From the sequence record NC_054917.1: a stretch of DNA of 64,000 nt. One strand, written 5' to 3'. Each line of letters starts with the position of its first letter. Position 1 is the stretch's first letter. The position numbers and the translations under genes are program-made. Of the stretch, positions 19,306 to 26,379 are shown in pieces. The notes under the pieces are model-generated. The model searched no databases. It had not been told where the DNA came from and worked only from the letters and a program-made list of their open reading frames with translations. The DNA is from Escherichia phage vB_EcoM_G50.

Positions 19306-20274
19306 TTATTTCAGAAGAGTAACCTCAGCAATTTCTTCCCAACCGTTTTTGTCTGTCATAATAAAGTCAGCAAGATAAAGAGCAGTACGCAGTGAAACAT
19401 TACGTAAACGATTAACATTGACTTTCATCCATGATAATGCTTTATAAGTTTCTTCATCAGAAAGACCGCGCTTTTGCATCATGTCAGTTGAAAGAATAAC
19501 ATCTTCAACCCTGACCATAATTTCTTCATTAGTGTGAACACCCAAATCCAAATAAACTGAGCGGGACACTAATGCTTGTAAATGTGGAGCAAGTTTAGTA
19601 CCACGGTCTAATTCGCGGTCAATGTCAACGTTTGTGATAAAAACAATCGTTCCTTTAAATTCAAACTCACGCTCAATGCCTTTTTCTTCTAAGTAAGAAG
19701 ATGCGGTGCTCCAGCAGACTTTACGGGTCTCTCCAGTGTCCAGAGCAGCTTTCAGAAGATTAAGAATGTCCATATCAGAGAAAACATCCACATCATCAAT
19801 CAAAAGGACAGAATTCTCTTCACGATTATTCCAAAGCTGCTCATAAAGACCAATACCAGAGATTTTACCATTAATGCTTTTATATTCAATGTATCCAATA
19901 TCATTTGCTTTATTTAAAGCTTTATCTAAAGAATACGTTTTACCAATACCTGCTGCTCCCGAGATAATTAATGAACGAATGTTTCCGTTAATAATACCAT
20001 TCGTCATCATTCCCATAACATTAAATCTTTTATTAATGCGGGTTTTCATATCTTCATACGATTCTTTAACTTCTTCAACTTTTACACCATCATATGAAAT
20101 GTCTGATTTGTAAACCCAAACACCGCGACGTTTACCGTCAATTTCAACAAAAACTTTACCATCTCCTTGTGCATCTACCGGAGCATTATCTGGGAACCAT
20201 TCGCCTAAGAGCTCAAAAGTTCCAGAAATTTCTTTACCGAAGTAGATACCCTTATTGATAGTTACAGTTTTCAT
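19306..20274 (-). CDS. P-loop NTPase (AAA-like ATPase), function unknown
   Basis: 322 aa; Walker A GAAGIGKT and Walker B LLIDDVD; about 100-aa N-terminal extra domain. Confidence 0.65.
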   Translation of the reverse strand: MKTVTINKGIYFGKEISGTFELLGEWFPDNAPVDAQGDGKVFVEIDGKRRGVWVYKSDISYDGVKVEEVKESYEDMKTRINKRFNVMGMMTNGIINGNIRSLIISGAAGIGKTYSLDKALNKANDIGYIEYKSINGKISGIGLYEQLWNNREENSVLLIDDVDVFSDMDILNLLKAALDTGETRKVCWSTASSYLEEKGIEREFEFKGTIVFITNVDIDRELDRGTKLAPHLQALVSRSVYLDLGVHTNEEIMVRVEDVILSTDMMQKRGLSDEETYKALSWMKVNVNRLRNVSLRTALYLADFIMTDKNGWEEIAEVTLLK

Positions 20275-20624: not shown

Positions 20625-20648
20625 AAAAAAGGGAGCCCGAAGGCTCCC
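20625..20648 (-). terminator. Intrinsic terminator (GGGAGCC-UUCG-GGCUCCC plus U6)
   Basis: Perfect 7-bp GC stem with UUCG loop directly after the stop of the 337-aa ORF, followed by UUUUUU on the minus strand. Confidence 0.7.
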
Positions 20649-20650
20649 TA

Positions 20651-21664
20651 TCATTTATAATAACTTCGGTGGTTTTCAAGATAGACCTTCTCAAGGAAGT
20701 CATCCCAGAAACTCATGTCTACTGTTTTAGGCATACCGTTCTTAGAAGCTTCAGTAGATGCTGCTTCTACTTGATCGACCACATCTTCCAAAAACTCTTG
20801 AACTGTTTTAAATGGATGTTTACCCAACTTCACGTCGAGAATAAATGGAGCATCTTGAAGTGGATAGACTAAGTCACCAGTTTTGTAAATTTCCAATAGT
20901 TGGAGTCCACCACGACAAGCATGACTCAAAGCTTTCCAGTCAATACCTTCATTGGCTTCAGCCTTACGAGCACGTTCACCGTATTCAGCATCTAATTTGT
21001 TCAGTGACTGCTTAAGCTCAATAAGAGAAAGCGTTGTCTGATATTTACGACCCAACACTGTGTAAAACGTCTGTGGGCCTGTTTTCTCATGATTATGGAA
21101 CACCCATTCACAGAATTCGTTTTCTGGAAGACGATGCTTAATATCTTCAACTTTAGTACGACGCTGCTTAATGGAACCGTCTTCTTGGTAATCAACCCAT
21201 TGCTCAGGGATTTGATTAACTACTTTCAATACATCGCGTAATGCAGCCAAACGAGAACCCTTGACACCGTATTTAGAAGCTTGCTTGCGGACATATCCTA
21301 AATAGGATTTCATGTTAGTCGTATAAAAACGAGAACGGTTGTCTTGAATAAACTTCCACACATCAGGCAAATCAGATTTAACCACTAGTTCAGGTGGAGT
21401 ATGAAGCATATCCAATGCTACAGTTTCACCATCTGCTGCTAATTTAAAGAAATATTTAAGACTGTATAGTTCATGGTCAATATCATCTTTAGTGTTTTTA
21501 GATGATGTATTGTTAGTGTTTTTACTCATGTGCTCTTTGACATTTCCGATAAGAATATCGCGAGCAGGAGGAACAAAGATTTCTTTAAAATCTACATCAG
21601 ATTCTGGGGTAGAAGTTCCATAAAGATGACTACCAAAATAGCTTTTCATTACTGTTTTCATCAT
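20651..21664 (-). CDS. Putative Pol-beta-superfamily nucleotidyltransferase
   Basis: 337 aa; N-terminal GS-x10-DxD signature (FGSHLYGTSTPESDVDF) typical of minimal nucleotidyltransferase folds; remainder uncharacterised. Confidence 0.55.
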   Translation of the reverse strand: MMKTVMKSYFGSHLYGTSTPESDVDFKEIFVPPARDILIGNVKEHMSKNTNNTSSKNTKDDIDHELYSLKYFFKLAADGETVALDMLHTPPELVVKSDLPDVWKFIQDNRSRFYTTNMKSYLGYVRKQASKYGVKGSRLAALRDVLKVVNQIPEQWVDYQEDGSIKQRRTKVEDIKHRLPENEFCEWVFHNHEKTGPQTFYTVLGRKYQTTLSLIELKQSLNKLDAEYGERARKAEANEGIDWKALSHACRGGLQLLEIYKTGDLVYPLQDAPFILDVKLGKHPFKTVQEFLEDVVDQVEAASTEASKNGMPKTVDMSFWDDFLEKVYLENHRSYYK

Positions 21665-22122
21665 TCAGCCTTATATTCAATAACAGGACATACTTTAGCT
21701 TTACGAGCTTTTAAAAATTCGACGATAATCGATTTCTTGGGTTGAATAGGAGGTAAACCTTTATACGCTCTATCAATATTTTCTACGTGTAAAGCATAAT
21801 CCTTTTTCCATTTATAATCTTTATATTTTTCACGCAAATGTGCAGGAATAACAAATGAACCGATAATAAGTAAAACAACCAAAAGTGCAAGTATAAATGC
21901 TGATGGAATAAGAGTCCATAAACTACCAAAAATAAGCCATTTCTGCATGATTTCTGCGCAGATAATAGTTAGACCTGCGAGTATAGTACATCCGAAAAAA
22001 GAAACGAAAAATGTAGGAATAACAATAGACCAAAAATACGCGCACAGTGTCTTAGGTCGTTGCCATTCATCGTTAAACAATTTGAATAATTTATAGTGCC
22101 AAGAGTTTTCATTAATAATCAT
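21661..22122 (-). CDS. Integral membrane protein
   Basis: 153 aa with 3-4 hydrophobic helices; 4-nt overlap with the nucleotidyltransferase-like gene. Confidence 0.55.
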   Translation of the reverse strand: MIINENSWHYKLFKLFNDEWQRPKTLCAYFWSIVIPTFFVSFFGCTILAGLTIICAEIMQKWLIFGSLWTLIPSAFILALLVVLLIIGSFVIPAHLREKYKDYKWKKDYALHVENIDRAYKGLPPIQPKKSIIVEFLKARKAKVCPVIEYKAE

Positions 22123-22124
22123 AA

Positions 22125-22646
22125 TTATCCTTTCATTGAAGGTGTAACAGTTGTTAAATACTTAATCATAGCTTCAGCTTCTGATTTTGATAATGAAATT
22201 TCTCCATTGTTTTGACGAATAGAAATAAAATCCGGATGACGGTCACCACCAGCTTTTAAAACACACATATAAGTATCAACTTCATCTTCAATATTTGAAA
22301 TGATTGAAGCAGTTCCACATGAATGCGGTTTTTGATAAATCAATACAGCTTTTCTTCCACCGTTTGACTGTTCATAAACTTTTAACACATCAAACAAATC
22401 ACTTCTTTTATCAATAGCTAAAATGTTGTTTTCATCTTCAATGTTAAATCCTTCGGATACTTCATAAAGTGTCACCCATAAATCACCTATATCGATAGTA
22501 GCATTTTCCTTTCCATGACTTTCAAGAGCATGACAAATTTTCTTGATTTCGTCATAACTCATTTTAATAATATCATCTCCTTGACTAAGGAAGATGTCAT
22601 TTTTAAATTCAACACGAATTAAACCACTTTCACTTGAAATAAACAT
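22125..22646 (-). CDS. Hypothetical protein, paralog A of a tandem pair
   Basis: 173 aa; shares EGFNIEDEN and ...IRQNNGEISLSKSEAEAMIKYLTTVTPSM with the adjacent ORF. Confidence 0.55.
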   Translation of the reverse strand: MFISSESGLIRVEFKNDIFLSQGDDIIKMSYDEIKKICHALESHGKENATIDIGDLWVTLYEVSEGFNIEDENNILAIDKRSDLFDVLKVYEQSNGGRKAVLIYQKPHSCGTASIISNIEDEVDTYMCVLKAGGDRHPDFISIRQNNGEISLSKSEAEAMIKYLTTVTPSMKG

Positions 22647-22652
22647 ATTTCC

Positions 22653-23207
22653 TCACTTTGAAATCATAGTTGGAATAACAGAATCAAGATAAGTCTTTAG
22701 TGCAATAGCTTCGTCTTTGGTAAATGTGACAATATGTGCTCGAAAATCGTCAATTTGACGAATAGTTAAGACGTCTCCATCTTCATAGCATTTTGAAACA
22801 TTTAAAATAGTTTCATCATTATGATTACAGGAGTTAGTAATAATAGCATTGCAATTTTTAAGCCATTTTAAACTATGTTTTCTTTCATTAGAATAATAAA
22901 AATATTTAATCTTAGTTATAAAATTATCCCAATTGTTAATTGATAAGCATATTGACTCGCTTTCAATATTAAATCCTGGGCATAAAGAATAGAAATGAAT
23001 TTTATGCTCATCATTAATGCTTACAATTTTATCAGTATAAGGTTTTTCAATTTGGGTTAAATGAATAATTTCGCTAGGCGTAAAATATAGCATATCGTCT
23101 TCTTGCGTCAAACGATACATATTATTTACTTTTTCTATAGCCAATTCACCAAAAAGTGAACTAACTTCTAATACTAATCGTTTCATATTAATCCTTTTTA
23201 TTGGCAC
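22653..23207 (-). CDS. Hypothetical protein, paralog B of a tandem pair
   Basis: 184 aa; PGFNIESES and ...IRQIDDFRAHIVTFTKDEAIALKTYLDSVIPTM align with paralog A. Confidence 0.55.
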   Translation of the reverse strand: MPIKRINMKRLVLEVSSLFGELAIEKVNNMYRLTQEDDMLYFTPSEIIHLTQIEKPYTDKIVSINDEHKIHFYSLCPGFNIESESICLSINNWDNFITKIKYFYYSNERKHSLKWLKNCNAIITNSCNHNDETILNVSKCYEDGDVLTIRQIDDFRAHIVTFTKDEAIALKTYLDSVIPTMISK

Positions 23208-23466
23208 GAATTTGTTCTAAAATTTTAGAATATTCCTTTGTATCAGATTTACGTACAATTGATACACTATAAGGCATACTATCGGTGTCTTTTATAAAGC
23301 GTTCCAAATGACACTCTAACAAAATTTCTGGATTATAAATCGTGTACATCAAATTACCTGTTGCTCCACGATATTGGCAGATTTCTACTGATTGAACACC
23401 ATTCCATAATTTTGTTAAAACTAAATCACCTACTTCTAATTTAGGAAAGCCCATGTTATTCACCAA
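23188..23466 (-). CDS. Hypothetical protein
   Basis: 92-aa ORF. Confidence 0.5.
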   Translation of the reverse strand: MVNNMGFPKLEVGDLVLTKLWNGVQSVEICQYRGATGNLMYTIYNPEILLECHLERFIKDTDSMPYSVSIVRKSDTKEYSKILEQIRANKKD

Positions 23467-23641
23467 TTAAAGTTTCAATATAAGAATCAAGATTTACTTT
23501 AGCTTCTTCCATAAGAGTTTTGTATTTAATCTTGTTAGCATGTCCGGAGAAAGCTGATTCATCAATAATTGTTGATGTATGAACAGCTTTACTATACGTC
23601 TCAATTAATTCTCTTAATTTAAAAGCCTGCTCACTTGTCAT
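23456..23641 (-). CDS. Hypothetical protein
   Basis: 61-aa ORF; preceded by a 34-codon micro-ORF with TAATG stop/start overlap. Confidence 0.45.
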   Translation of the reverse strand: MTSEQAFKLRELIETYSKAVHTSTIIDESAFSGHANKIKYKTLMEEAKVNLDSYIETLIGE

Positions 23642-23803: not shown

Positions 23804-23968
23804 CATTAAATGGCGTTTTCAATAAAATTCTGAAGCTTTGTGTGAGCATCAACCATGATTTTCATTTCTTCTTTTGCGAAAGCTGTACCTCTTTCCCGAG
23901 CAGAATACTCATAGTCAGAAACTGCATTAGCATATTCTTCAATTAGCTTCATTAAAAACATCTGCTTT

Positions 23969-24163
23969 TCAGTTTTCATTATTCCACCTAATCATTTCAA
24001 GATATTGAACTAACTTAGCTTTAGATTTATCCAAATCTCTTTTAGCTGCTTCTATACCGTCGTATGAATATCCTTCACAATGCTCAACTGCTAATTGATA
24101 TGAATCTATTTCAATATCACGTGCTAATTTAATGATTTTTTCAAACTGTTCGCGTGTTAGCAT
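23969..24163 (-). CDS. Hypothetical protein
   Basis: 64-aa ORF. Confidence 0.45.
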   Translation of the reverse strand: MLTREQFEKIIKLARDIEIDSYQLAVEHCEGYSYDGIEAAKRDLDKSKAKLVQYLEMIRWNNEN

Positions 24164-24165
24164 AC

Positions 24166-24405
24166 TTAAACTCTCGTATTATGATCGATAATTTCATCAA
24201 GAAACATATCTAACGCTTCTAAAGCATTATCCACTTTAGTTTCAAAGTCTTTAATGCCTTTATTCGAAATACCCGATGAATACCAAGCAAAGTTAATGCG
24301 CTCCTCGTCTGCTTTACGAATTAAAGCTACCAATTCCTTAATTTTATCAGCTTGTTCGATACTAATCATTATTCCACCACATATGAAAGAGAGAATATAG
24401 CACAC
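24166..24405 (-). CDS. Hypothetical protein
   Basis: 79-aa track ORF; start may be the internal ATG ([14 protein letters not shown]). Confidence 0.45.
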
Positions 24406-24625: not shown

Positions 24626-24648
24626 AAAAAAGTCTCCCGAAGGAGACT
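24626..24648 (-). terminator. Intrinsic terminator (AGUCUCC-UUCG-GGAGACU plus U-run)
   Basis: 7-bp stem with UUCG loop just after the stop of the 128-aa ORF, followed by UUUUU. Confidence 0.65.
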
Positions 24649-24652
24649 AATG

Positions 24653-25039
24653 TTATTCGAGGGAAAGAAGATATTTACTCTGGTAAAACATTCCAGTAAT
24701 ATCATCTATCGTGCTTTGAATGGCTGGAGGCATTTCTTTATAAATGCTGTTAGATTGGTCTAGTATGCGATCAATCATTTTAATTGTGTCGGTAGGAAGT
24801 TTACTAGCATCTGGAATTGAAGGTGTGTATTTTCTACCAGAATACCCCAAATATTGCTCACCAAATTTATCAATCAAATCTGGCAACTCGGAGAAAATAA
24901 AATCGTATGCTTTGTGTCTAGCATAACTTTTAGTTTCAAAATGTGCAGAATGAAAATAAGCTTGTGCAGCCATTAATAAACCTAAGTATTCATCTGCCTT
25001 TGAAGGTTTTCCACTTTGTGAAAAGTCGCTGAATTTCAT
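24653..25039 (-). CDS. Hypothetical protein (rI.-1-like position)
   Basis: 128-aa ORF immediately downstream of rI. Confidence 0.5.
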
Positions 25040-25329
25040 TCAGTCTCCAATTTAATGTTCATAATTCTAGCGTATGATTGTGCCATCTCCGCGCCTCGTT
25101 CTATACATTCAAAATCAGAAGAGCACGGGTCATTTTTATAGGTCGTTCTCATAAAACTATAGAATTGTTCAGACGATTCTACGCTTTTATTTTCAAAAAG
25201 CATATAAACGTGCCTAATACCAGATTCCATAAATTTATCAAAATGAGGATCGACATTCGCTTCAATCGATGGAGATAAAACAAATGACAATCCTAGCATG
25301 GCAAAAAGTGCCGTTGCTTTTAAGGCCAT
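25036..25329 (-). CDS. rI: Lysis-inhibition antiholin RI
   Basis: 97 aa; N-terminal signal-anchor MALKATALFAMLGLSFVLSPSIEA and periplasmic domain; matches T4 RI as recalled; location upstream of tk. Confidence 0.85.
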   Translation of the reverse strand: MALKATALFAMLGLSFVLSPSIEANVDPHFDKFMESGIRHVYMLFENKSVESSEQFYSFMRTTYKNDPCSSDFECIERGAEMAQSYARIMNIKLETE

Positions 25330-25596: not shown

Positions 25597-26178
25597 CTAA
25601 CCGAGCTTTTTGGTTAATTCATTCCAATGTTTTCTACACAAAGAAACATAAATTTCATCACCAATACAGATTTGATTACCTTCTTTAACTGGTGTTCCAT
25701 CTTCCATTAATCGAGCTGTCATAATCGCTTTTTTACCGCAATGACAAACTGCTTTTAGTTCAATAAGTTTATCTGCAATCGCTAAAAGTTCTTTAGAACC
25801 TTCAAACAATTTTCCAGCGAAATCAGTCCTTAATCCATAAGCCATAACAGGAACATTATATGTATCAACAATTCGGCTCAATTGATGCACTTGTTCAGTT
25901 TTTAAAAACTGAGCTTCATCTACAAATACGCAATGAATATCTTTTTGTGCTTCAGCCCATTTATAGAACTCAAAAATATCCATATCATCCGTAATAATAT
26001 TCGCTTCCTGCTTAATTCCAATGCGAGAAACGACTTCACAGACAGAATCACGAGTATCAATAGCAGGCTTAAGAACTAATACACCCATTCCGCGTTCTTT
26101 ATAATTATGCGCAGCAGTCAAAAGAGAAGCAGATTTTCCAGCATTCATTGCTGCATAAGTAAAAATTAAACTCGCCAT
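25597..26178 (-). CDS. tk: Thymidine kinase
   Basis: 193 aa; P-loop AAMNAGKS; C-terminal zinc-binding CxxC...CRKH region typical of type II thymidine kinases. Confidence 0.9.
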   Translation of the reverse strand: MASLIFTYAAMNAGKSASLLTAAHNYKERGMGVLVLKPAIDTRDSVCEVVSRIGIKQEANIITDDMDIFEFYKWAEAQKDIHCVFVDEAQFLKTEQVHQLSRIVDTYNVPVMAYGLRTDFAGKLFEGSKELLAIADKLIELKAVCHCGKKAIMTARLMEDGTPVKEGNQICIGDEIYVSLCRKHWNELTKKLG

Positions 26179-26187
26179 ATCACCTTC

Positions 26188-26379
26188 TTAAAGCGTATTC
26201 ACATAAGCTATTAATTCGTTTTCTTTCTTATCAAACCGGTCAGCAAATTCTTCCTGTTGTTCGGGAGATAGCGGGCCGTATTCATCATAAAAGGTGTTTG
26301 CTTCTATATGCTCATCTAGAAGTTCATGGATAAGCTCAAATAATTTATCTTTTTGTTCTTTACTCAGACTCATAGCCAT
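26188..26379 (-). CDS. Hypothetical acidic protein
   Basis: Track ORF shortened to MAMSLSKEQ to avoid overlap with the upstream ORF. Confidence 0.4.
   Translation of the reverse strand: MAMSLSKEQKDKLFELIHELLDEHIEANTFYDEYGPLSPEQQEEFADRFDKKENELIAYVNTL

Follow-up and report, generated by a model that had tools for sequence, protein, structure and literature searches.

The 64,000 nucleotides (nt) of Escherichia phage vB_EcoM_G50 analysed here (NC_054917.1; hereafter the window) are a genome segment of a Tequatrovirus, i.e. a T4-like phage, and carry on the minus strand two adjacent genes of the MobD.1 family, here called A (the upstream paralog) and B (the downstream paralog). According to the best explanation, to which a probability of about 60% is assigned, A and B are ancient tandem paralogs of this family and accessory genes under purifying selection, and their products have a three-repeat fold like that of PC4, PUR, and Whirly proteins and form dimers. 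The two genes would be tightly packed tandem paralogs in the hyperplastic accessory region between rI/tk and nrdC.11, with B as a second copy that diverged long ago and has been kept by most Tequatroviruses. Each protein would consist of three beta-beta-beta-beta-alpha repeats, the first two of which close on each other to give one domain, and the third of which is a half-domain that would pair with the third repeat of another molecule, so that homodimers, or perhaps A:B heterodimers, would result. The variable N-terminal domain, which carries the divergence between allele classes, may be the ligand-binding or specificity module, and the conserved C-terminal repeat may be the pairing module. 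The ligand could, more speculatively, be a macromolecule met early in infection, either a single-stranded nucleic acid or, given the acidity of the proteins, another protein.

Paralogy of the two genes

The initial annotation had described two adjacent open reading frames (ORFs), 22125-22646 and 22653-23207, that share collinear blocks, and both are indeed present, on the minus strand, with the quoted peptide blocks being minus-strand translations. In a pairwise BLASTP alignment, the two proteins are 29% identical with 51% positives over 175 amino acids (aa), and the E-value of 9e-11 (for a single comparison) is far below the 0.01 that the annotation itself had taken as the limit of significance. 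Both match Pfam PF24449 (T4_y05I_N; E-values 2.7e-32 and 1.1e-40; A 138.7 bits, B 111.8 bits; gathering score 24.9 bits) and PF24448 (T4_y05I_C; E-values 1.5e-22 and 4e-21; A 75.6 bits, B 80.2 bits; gathering score 27 bits), and both match PHROG 1502 from end to end (3.4e-66 and 6.5e-81). The sequence comparison confirms A and B as real tandem paralogs of the MobD.1 (Y05I) family. That the similarity arose by chance or from composition, and that the two genes are unrelated, has a practically negligible probability: the identity is only 29% and both genes are AT-rich, but the E-value was obtained with composition-based statistics, the same two Pfam families are matched above their thresholds, A and B are collinear over their full length, and a natural chimera fuses them in register. 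Two unrelated ORFs are ruled out by the BLASTP, Pfam, and PHROG results. Hidden Markov models (HMMs) of the N- and C-terminal domains, when scanned against the 64-kb window, found no members of the family besides A and B.

The upstream ORF is thus real, but its assigned start at GTG 23207 is probably seven codons too far upstream. The ATG at 23186 is preceded by AAGGA with a 5-nt spacer and comes one base after the stop codon (TAA) of the tudor gene upstream, and the orthologs of A in the phages slur14 and RB32 are annotated at 534 nt, which is the length counted from this ATG. It is therefore most likely that A starts at ATG 23186 and encodes 177 aa.

By its sequence, A is the ortholog of T4 mobD.1 (about 86% aa identity, 92.6% nt identity). 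T4 MobD.1 (Y05I; NP_049711) is the founder of PF24449/PF24448 and PHROG 1502 and resembles A in its position upstream of the nrdC.11 block, and its two-domain architecture is shared by B. T4 carries only one copy at this locus, followed by the HNH endonuclease gene mobD, whereas A, B, a membrane protein gene, and an upstream tudor gene are found here. RB32 has the same arrangement as the window and differs in nothing substantive: its ORFs RB32ORF097c and RB32ORF096c share 95% and 93% identity with B and the membrane ORF, respectively. In the GenBank record of RB32 (NC_008515), the former is noted as 'similar to mobD.1' and the latter as 'replaces mobD', and the tandem paralogy is therefore already on record. 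With the paralogy and the Pfam and PHROG family being public, the finding is ordinary for the hyperplastic region of T4-type phages, and as first stated it adds nothing new, the window being 97% identical to sequenced phages (nearest records slur03 and slur14). The only new lead is a modest one, namely the predicted Pur-alpha-like architecture together with the dimer hypothesis, which offers something concrete that is cheap to follow: dimerisation via the third repeat, and then nucleic acid versus protein as ligand.

Age of the split and selection

In a neighbour-joining tree of 21 full-length members, which is distance-based, unrooted, and without support values, B groups with P0010, a protein 56% identical to B, outside the clade of all A-type genes of Tequatrovirus, Gaprivervirus, and Dhakavirus. 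Since B stands outside all these A-type orthologs at only 20-30% identity, its sequence suggests either that the A/B split is older than the divergence of these genera or that B evolved much faster. The old tandem duplication with subsequent divergence, as proposed in the initial annotation, is supported by the tree and by the low identities, but the diversifying selection that had been proposed along with it is not, as the gene-wide ratios of nonsynonymous to synonymous substitutions (dN/dS) are only 0.16-0.24.

It is somewhat unlikely that B is not an in-situ duplicate, but was recombined in from another T4-like lineage and came to lie beside A. Such an import would agree with the position of B outside all A-type orthologs, with the demonstrably mosaic nature of the region, and with the metagenomic T4-like contig L015, in which a B-like gene (56-57% identical to B) is the sole copy and lies syntenically between the tudor gene and the membrane gene. 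However, a loss of A explains L015 equally well, two genes in tandem on the same strand with a gap of 6 nt are what a duplication produces, and the tree is the unrooted one of 21 sequences without support values.

The dN/dS ratios, determined pairwise by the Nei-Gojobori method (NG86) among orthologs from 8-11 genomes, are 0.24 for A, 0.16 for B, 0.17 for the membrane gene, 0.07 for nrdC.11, and 0.03 for rI.-1, and between 0.12 and 0.26 for the individual domains of A and B. A and B are thus kept by purifying selection that is weaker than in nrdC.11 or rI.-1. In this small sample, neither gene-wide nor per-domain ratios above 1 were seen for A or B; a ratio of 1.5 for two alleles of the divergent A2 class (see below) was disregarded, as it comes from very few differences between only two sequences. 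Viable genome-reduced T4 mutants have lost the nrdC.11-mobD.3 fragment (PMC9825161), and frameshifted copies occur in RB14 and SV76, which is why the genes can be considered dispensable in the laboratory. A and B are non-essential accessory genes, and the dN/dS values imply that both copies are nevertheless maintained by selection.

Predicted fold

The structural model of A, which is based on an alignment of 27 sequences, has a mean predicted local distance difference test (pLDDT) score of 88.6, with 92-97 in the N-terminal and 76-91 in the C-terminal domain, and consists of three units, the first two with four strands and a helix each and the third with five strands and a helix. For the family, a PUR-type fold of beta-beta-beta-beta-alpha repeats is predicted from this. 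The closest structural neighbours are repeats I-II of Drosophila Pur-alpha (score 11.4; 99 residues, 2.7 Å), followed by Whirly p24 (8.3), StWhy2 (8.0), MRP1 and MRP2 (7.7 and 7.4), Pur-alpha repeat III (7.5), SsgA (7.1), human PURA repeat III (7.0), the single-repeat Pur-alpha of Borrelia (6.8), and PC4/Sub1 (about 5-6), and this ranking was the same with a model of B that was made earlier and is of lower quality. The structural alignments have 4-13% sequence identity. Repeats 1 and 3 have a sequence relationship as well (hhalign probability 93%, E = 2.4e-7), and the HMMs of the two domains cross-match; repeat 2 has no detectable sequence similarity to the other repeats.

Proteins of the PC4-like fold class have been reviewed (PMC7549692). 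Within one Pur-alpha molecule, repeats I and II fold into a domain together, whereas repeat III makes its domain with a second molecule, and according to that review of 2020, Pur-alpha is the only known protein that combines a type I (intramolecular) and a type II (intermolecular) domain (PMC7549692). The model predicts for the MobD.1 family the same three-repeat layout as in Pur-alpha. This precedent, the existence of genes that encode only a C-terminal domain, and a viable chimera with a hybrid C-terminal domain together suggest that the phage proteins dimerise via their third repeats.

There are also observations that weigh against a Pur-alpha-like protein. The predicted template modelling score (pTM) of the A model is only 0.63, which leaves it uncertain how the two domains are placed relative to each other, and in the first model, which was that of B, the C-terminal domain had a low confidence. 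The PurA/PUR family is absent from the Pfam matches at E-values up to 1, the full-length members of the family are acidic (isoelectric points 4.2-5.5, net charges -6 to -22), and a conserved basic or aromatic binding surface is not evident in the family alignment. A sequence search of the PDB with the family profile returned nothing at E-values up to 1, and a BFVD search returned only family members and weak matches labelled Sub1 or Whirly.

The known proteins of this fold differ from the phage proteins in several respects. Compared to Pur-alpha (PURA; PDB 3k44, 5fgo, 8chw), the phage proteins are acidic and thus not nucleic-acid-friendly in charge, their third repeat is predicted to have five strands, and their dimerisation and nucleic acid binding are hypothetical. 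The one-repeat protein Bpur of Borrelia burgdorferi (PDB 3n8b, 3nm7) resembles the stand-alone C-terminal domains of 67-87 aa, which would also need to dimerise to complete the fold, but it has no sequence relationship to the phage family. The SsgA-like cell division proteins (PDB 3cm1) are actinobacterial, have no sequence similarity to A and B, and lack a third repeat. The sequence KGKAAL, the conserved motif of Whirly proteins, is absent from the translations of A and B, which also have no Whirly match in Pfam. Whirly, MRP1-MRP2, and PC4 are basic proteins that form tetramers or heterotetramers, and Bpur reportedly binds nucleic acid.

Family and domain conservation

When 1.84 billion representative proteins were searched with a profile, only 28 family members (cluster representatives) were detected, which comprise full-length proteins, fragments, and the C-terminal-domain-only proteins of 67-87 aa. 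With a family that tiny, no function can be transferred from homologs: a word-indexed protein search found close relatives only, and the exhaustive profile search found no distant annotated homolog. The family is confined to T4-like phages, with those matches that carry an E. coli or Shigella label stemming from contigs of phage size. Genes for the C-terminal domain alone (P0054-P0069; about 70 aa) are found in Moonvirus and in phages of Klebsiella, Serratia, Yersinia, and Erwinia.

The C-terminal domain of A (modelled strands E105-156, helix H157-170) ends in the most conserved segment of the family, TKDEAIALKTYLDSVIPTM. This segment is the C-terminal helix TKxEAxALxxYLxxVIPTM, which is present in both A and B in the form TKxEAxALxxYLxxVxPxM, and its residues E159, Y166, and L167 are invariant in 27 family members. 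A T-x-x-E helix-capping box together with a hydrophobic helix face would account for the invariant residues, and repeat 1 has an equivalent T-P-S-E box, which is why the conservation is read as mainly structural. The helix was also considered as a docking motif, but a structural conservation by capping box and hydrophobic face is the simpler explanation. In general, the conserved residues of the family look structural, being T/S-x-x-E helix-capping boxes, a Q-x-D-D hairpin turn, and hydrophobic helix faces. A catalytic role of the acidic motifs (QEDD, GFNIExE) was not adopted: QEDD lies at a predicted hairpin turn and has a Q-x-DD counterpart in repeat 3, and judging by the model its role is probably structural as well.

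Possible ligands

For A and B, a binding of nucleic acid and a binding of protein have roughly equal odds. A tentative possibility is that they are single-stranded DNA- or RNA-binding regulators like Pur-alpha, Whirly, and PC4, in which the beta-sheets of the N-terminal domain would bind and melt nucleic acid and the dimerisation would join two binding domains. Such a role would be a special case of the best explanation given above, in which the ligand is specified, and Pfam uses the name 'putative transcription factors'. The top structural neighbours with known ligands (Pur-alpha, Whirly, MRP1/2, PC4/Sub1, and YdbC) all bind single-stranded DNA or RNA (PMC7549692), and the conserved operon partner nrdC.11, whose synteny is kept across genera, matches RlaP nucleotidyltransferases of RNA repair. 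However, SsgA is an example of a protein that has this fold without binding nucleic acid, and A and B have neither a PUR nor a Whirly sequence signature. The acidity of nearly all members and the lack of evident conserved basic or aromatic surface residues further weaken a nucleic acid binding.

The same acidity would suit proteins that bind other proteins, and it is possible, though doubtful, that A and B are host-takeover or counter-defence factors in an arms race, as had been considered in the initial annotation. The variable N-terminal domain would then have a host protein as its target, perhaps through mimicry of nucleic acid, and the range of such targets would be broadened by duplication and allele swaps. 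The extreme plasticity of the locus, including allele classes of 50% identity inside DNA that is otherwise 93-98% identical, would agree with this, as would an amino acid divergence several-fold above that of the neighbours, the dispensability in the laboratory host (PMC9825161), and the restriction of the family to one phage subfamily. On the other hand, the dN/dS analysis argues for purifying selection gene-wide as well as in each domain, there is no match to any characterised anti-defence protein, and a literature search returned no function or phenotype for mobD.1, which appears in a single paper, where it only marks the right-hand side of the site at which the homing endonuclease gene mobD is inserted. 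Nothing in this analysis ties A and B to host range or anti-defence, with which the initial annotation had associated such gene pairs.

A more far-reaching scenario, improbable as a whole, would combine these aspects: the phage proteins would be the first PC4-like chain with a type I and a type II domain outside eukaryotic Pur-alpha, A, B, and the products of the C-terminal-domain-only genes of other T4-like phages would heterodimerise via the conserved third repeat, and the pairs of acidic N-terminal domains would serve as decoys or modulators. If this were true, combinatorial pairs of N-terminal domains would act on host proteins that handle nucleic acid or on host defence proteins.

Plasticity of the locus

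The A+B arrangement is common in Tequatrovirus, as tblastn finds B at an identity of at least 80% in 432 records and A in 414, with the B orthologs being 92-99% identical. The survey across T4-like phages, which had been suggested along with the initial annotation, did detect a variable copy number: there are 0-2 intact copies, and a divergent allele class, chimeras, and pseudogenes occur as well. In T4, B is missing because the homing endonuclease gene mobD (L001:10451-11258) fills the exact place of B and the adjacent membrane gene. The region 21666-22627 has no T4 counterpart in blastn (breakpoints 21665/21666 and 22627/22628), and the flanks of this swap, nrdC.11 and mobD.1, are 93-96% identical between T4 and the window. 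The locus is thereby a clean example of a homing endonuclease at a position where other phages keep two accessory genes. Positions 23185-23629, which comprise the tudor gene and a 61-aa DUF7438 ORF, are also missing from T4, and the tudor gene is missing from JK23, bov10K1, UFV13, and RB32 as well.

The phages JK23 and bov10K1 possess, beside a normal B, an A allele of only about 50% identity, termed A2. In the alignment of JK23 with the window, the nucleotides of a segment that covers the tudor gene and the 5' three quarters of A cannot be aligned, while the DNA outside is 93-98% identical, and the A and A2 proteins have an identity of 40-43% from aa 1 to 140 and of 92% from aa 141 to 177. 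The unalignable segment and the jump in protein identity at aa 140/141 identify the difference, as far as can be judged from the sequences, as a cassette exchanged by recombination, with the right-hand breakpoint inside gene A.

In the metagenomic T4-like contigs L016-L018, from at least three samples, the tandem pair is replaced by a single in-register A::B chimera (P0011; L016:4001-4540, L017:4001-4540, L018:1306-1845), in which the N-terminal domain and the first C-terminal-domain strands of A are joined to the rest of the C-terminal domain of B. This is the product that is expected of unequal recombination between paralogs, and the locus thus shows how tandem paralogs recombine into chimeras. 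One full-length copy is found in the Gaprivervirus TH15 and in the Dhakavirus Bp7, and a gene for the C-terminal domain alone lies at the syntenic site of the Moonvirus Citrobacter phage Merlin (L014:3001-3237). In RB14, A is frameshifted and split in two (L012:2471-3030), and in the T2-type phage SV76 both copies are fragmented into two or three frames (L004:2416-3516). The split genes of SV76 and RB14 are either real pseudogenes or frameshift errors of the records, and a 97-aa protein fragment of T2 (P0046) suggests that at least the T2-type truncation is real. The high plasticity of the locus, with presence and absence, allele replacement, chimeras, and pseudogenes, fits an accessory gene.

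Gene order and transcription

About 1.9 kb around A and B are 97% identical to slur03 and slur14, and nucleotide matches to the A+B region were found in 502 phage records, 358 of which span at least 80% of the whole arrangement. The features are listed in Table 1.

Table 1. Features of the A+B locus in the window, in minus-strand order, and of its surroundings
Feature	Position	Strand	Basis or remark
tk	25597-26178	minus	first in minus-strand order
rI.1		minus	between tk and rI
rI	25036-25329	minus	
rI.-1	24653-25039	minus	
Terminator-like hairpin	24631-24648	minus	after rI.-1; upstream boundary of the unit
Run of small ORFs		minus	between rI.-1 and the tudor ORF
Phage_tudor ORF, about 88-92 aa	23188-23466	minus	Pfam PF24144, 2.7e-40; belongs to the variable cassette
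Paralog A, T4 mobD.1 ortholog, 177 aa	22653-23186	minus	identity to T4, Pfam, Shine-Dalgarno sequence, ortholog length
N-terminal domain of A, aa 1-103	22878-23186	minus	two beta-beta-beta-beta-alpha repeats, predicted as one closed PC4/PUR-like domain
C-terminal domain of A, aa 104-177	22656-22877	minus	single repeat of beta-sheet and helix (model)
Paralog B, RB32ORF097c ortholog, 173 aa	22125-22646	minus	BLASTP versus A, Pfam, PHROG, RB32 note
Membrane protein, RB32ORF096c ortholog, 153 aa	21661-22122	minus	PHROG 944 'membrane protein', synteny
nrdC.11, nucleotidyltransferase	20651-21664	minus	
Terminator-like hairpin	20630-20649	minus	after nrdC.11; likely 3' end of the A+B transcription unit
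nrdC.10, AAA ATPase	19306-20274	minus	
Mosaic segment: tudor gene and 5' three quarters of A	22788-23451		blastn versus JK23 (L005)
DUF7438 ORFs	23459-23641, 23809-23979, 23972-24163, 24169-24369, 26191-26376	minus	Pfam

The genes for the tudor protein, A, B, the membrane protein, and nrdC.11 abut or overlap their neighbours by 0-6 nt. A and B are separated by 6 nt, and the GAGGA Shine-Dalgarno sequence of B shares nucleotides with the TGA stop codon of A. This tight packing, the overlap of Shine-Dalgarno sequence and stop codon, and the flanking terminator-like hairpins would be consistent with one transcription unit with translational coupling. A scan for sigma-70 promoters was no better than chance (25 found, 21.6 expected from shuffles). 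When compared with T4, slur14, T6, RB32, Bp7, TH15, and Merlin, the genes hold the site that is typical for Tevenvirinae, downstream of rI/rI.-1 and the small ORFs mobD.2-5 and upstream of the membrane gene and nrdC.11. The order of MobD.1-family gene, membrane gene, and nrdC.11 is kept in Dhakavirus, Gaprivervirus, and Moonvirus, and the membrane gene follows the family member in TH15, Bp7, L015, and L016. As to the downstream genes, the match of nrdC.11 to RlaP, a nucleotidyltransferase family of RNA repair pathways, is to PF10127 (3.1e-11), and nrdC.10 encodes a P-loop/AAA-type ATPase with weak STAND-like matches.

RefSeq labels orthologs of mobD.1 and mobD.4 as 'molybdopterin-guanine dinucleotide biosynthesis protein MobD' and a 61-aa DUF7438 ORF as 'helicase loader', which look like name-transfer errors that originate from the T4 symbol mobD (mobile endonuclease D), and the T6 record AP018814 has unrelated labels, too, for example 'integrase' and 'prohead core protein'. 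Near A and B, five small minus-strand ORFs of 57-67 aa match DUF7438 in Pfam (E-values from 1e-15 to 3e-19). With them, the accessory region has a second array of diverged paralogs, larger than the pair of A and B, corresponding to genes of the T4 mobD.2a-mobD.5 and tk.1/tk.2 types.

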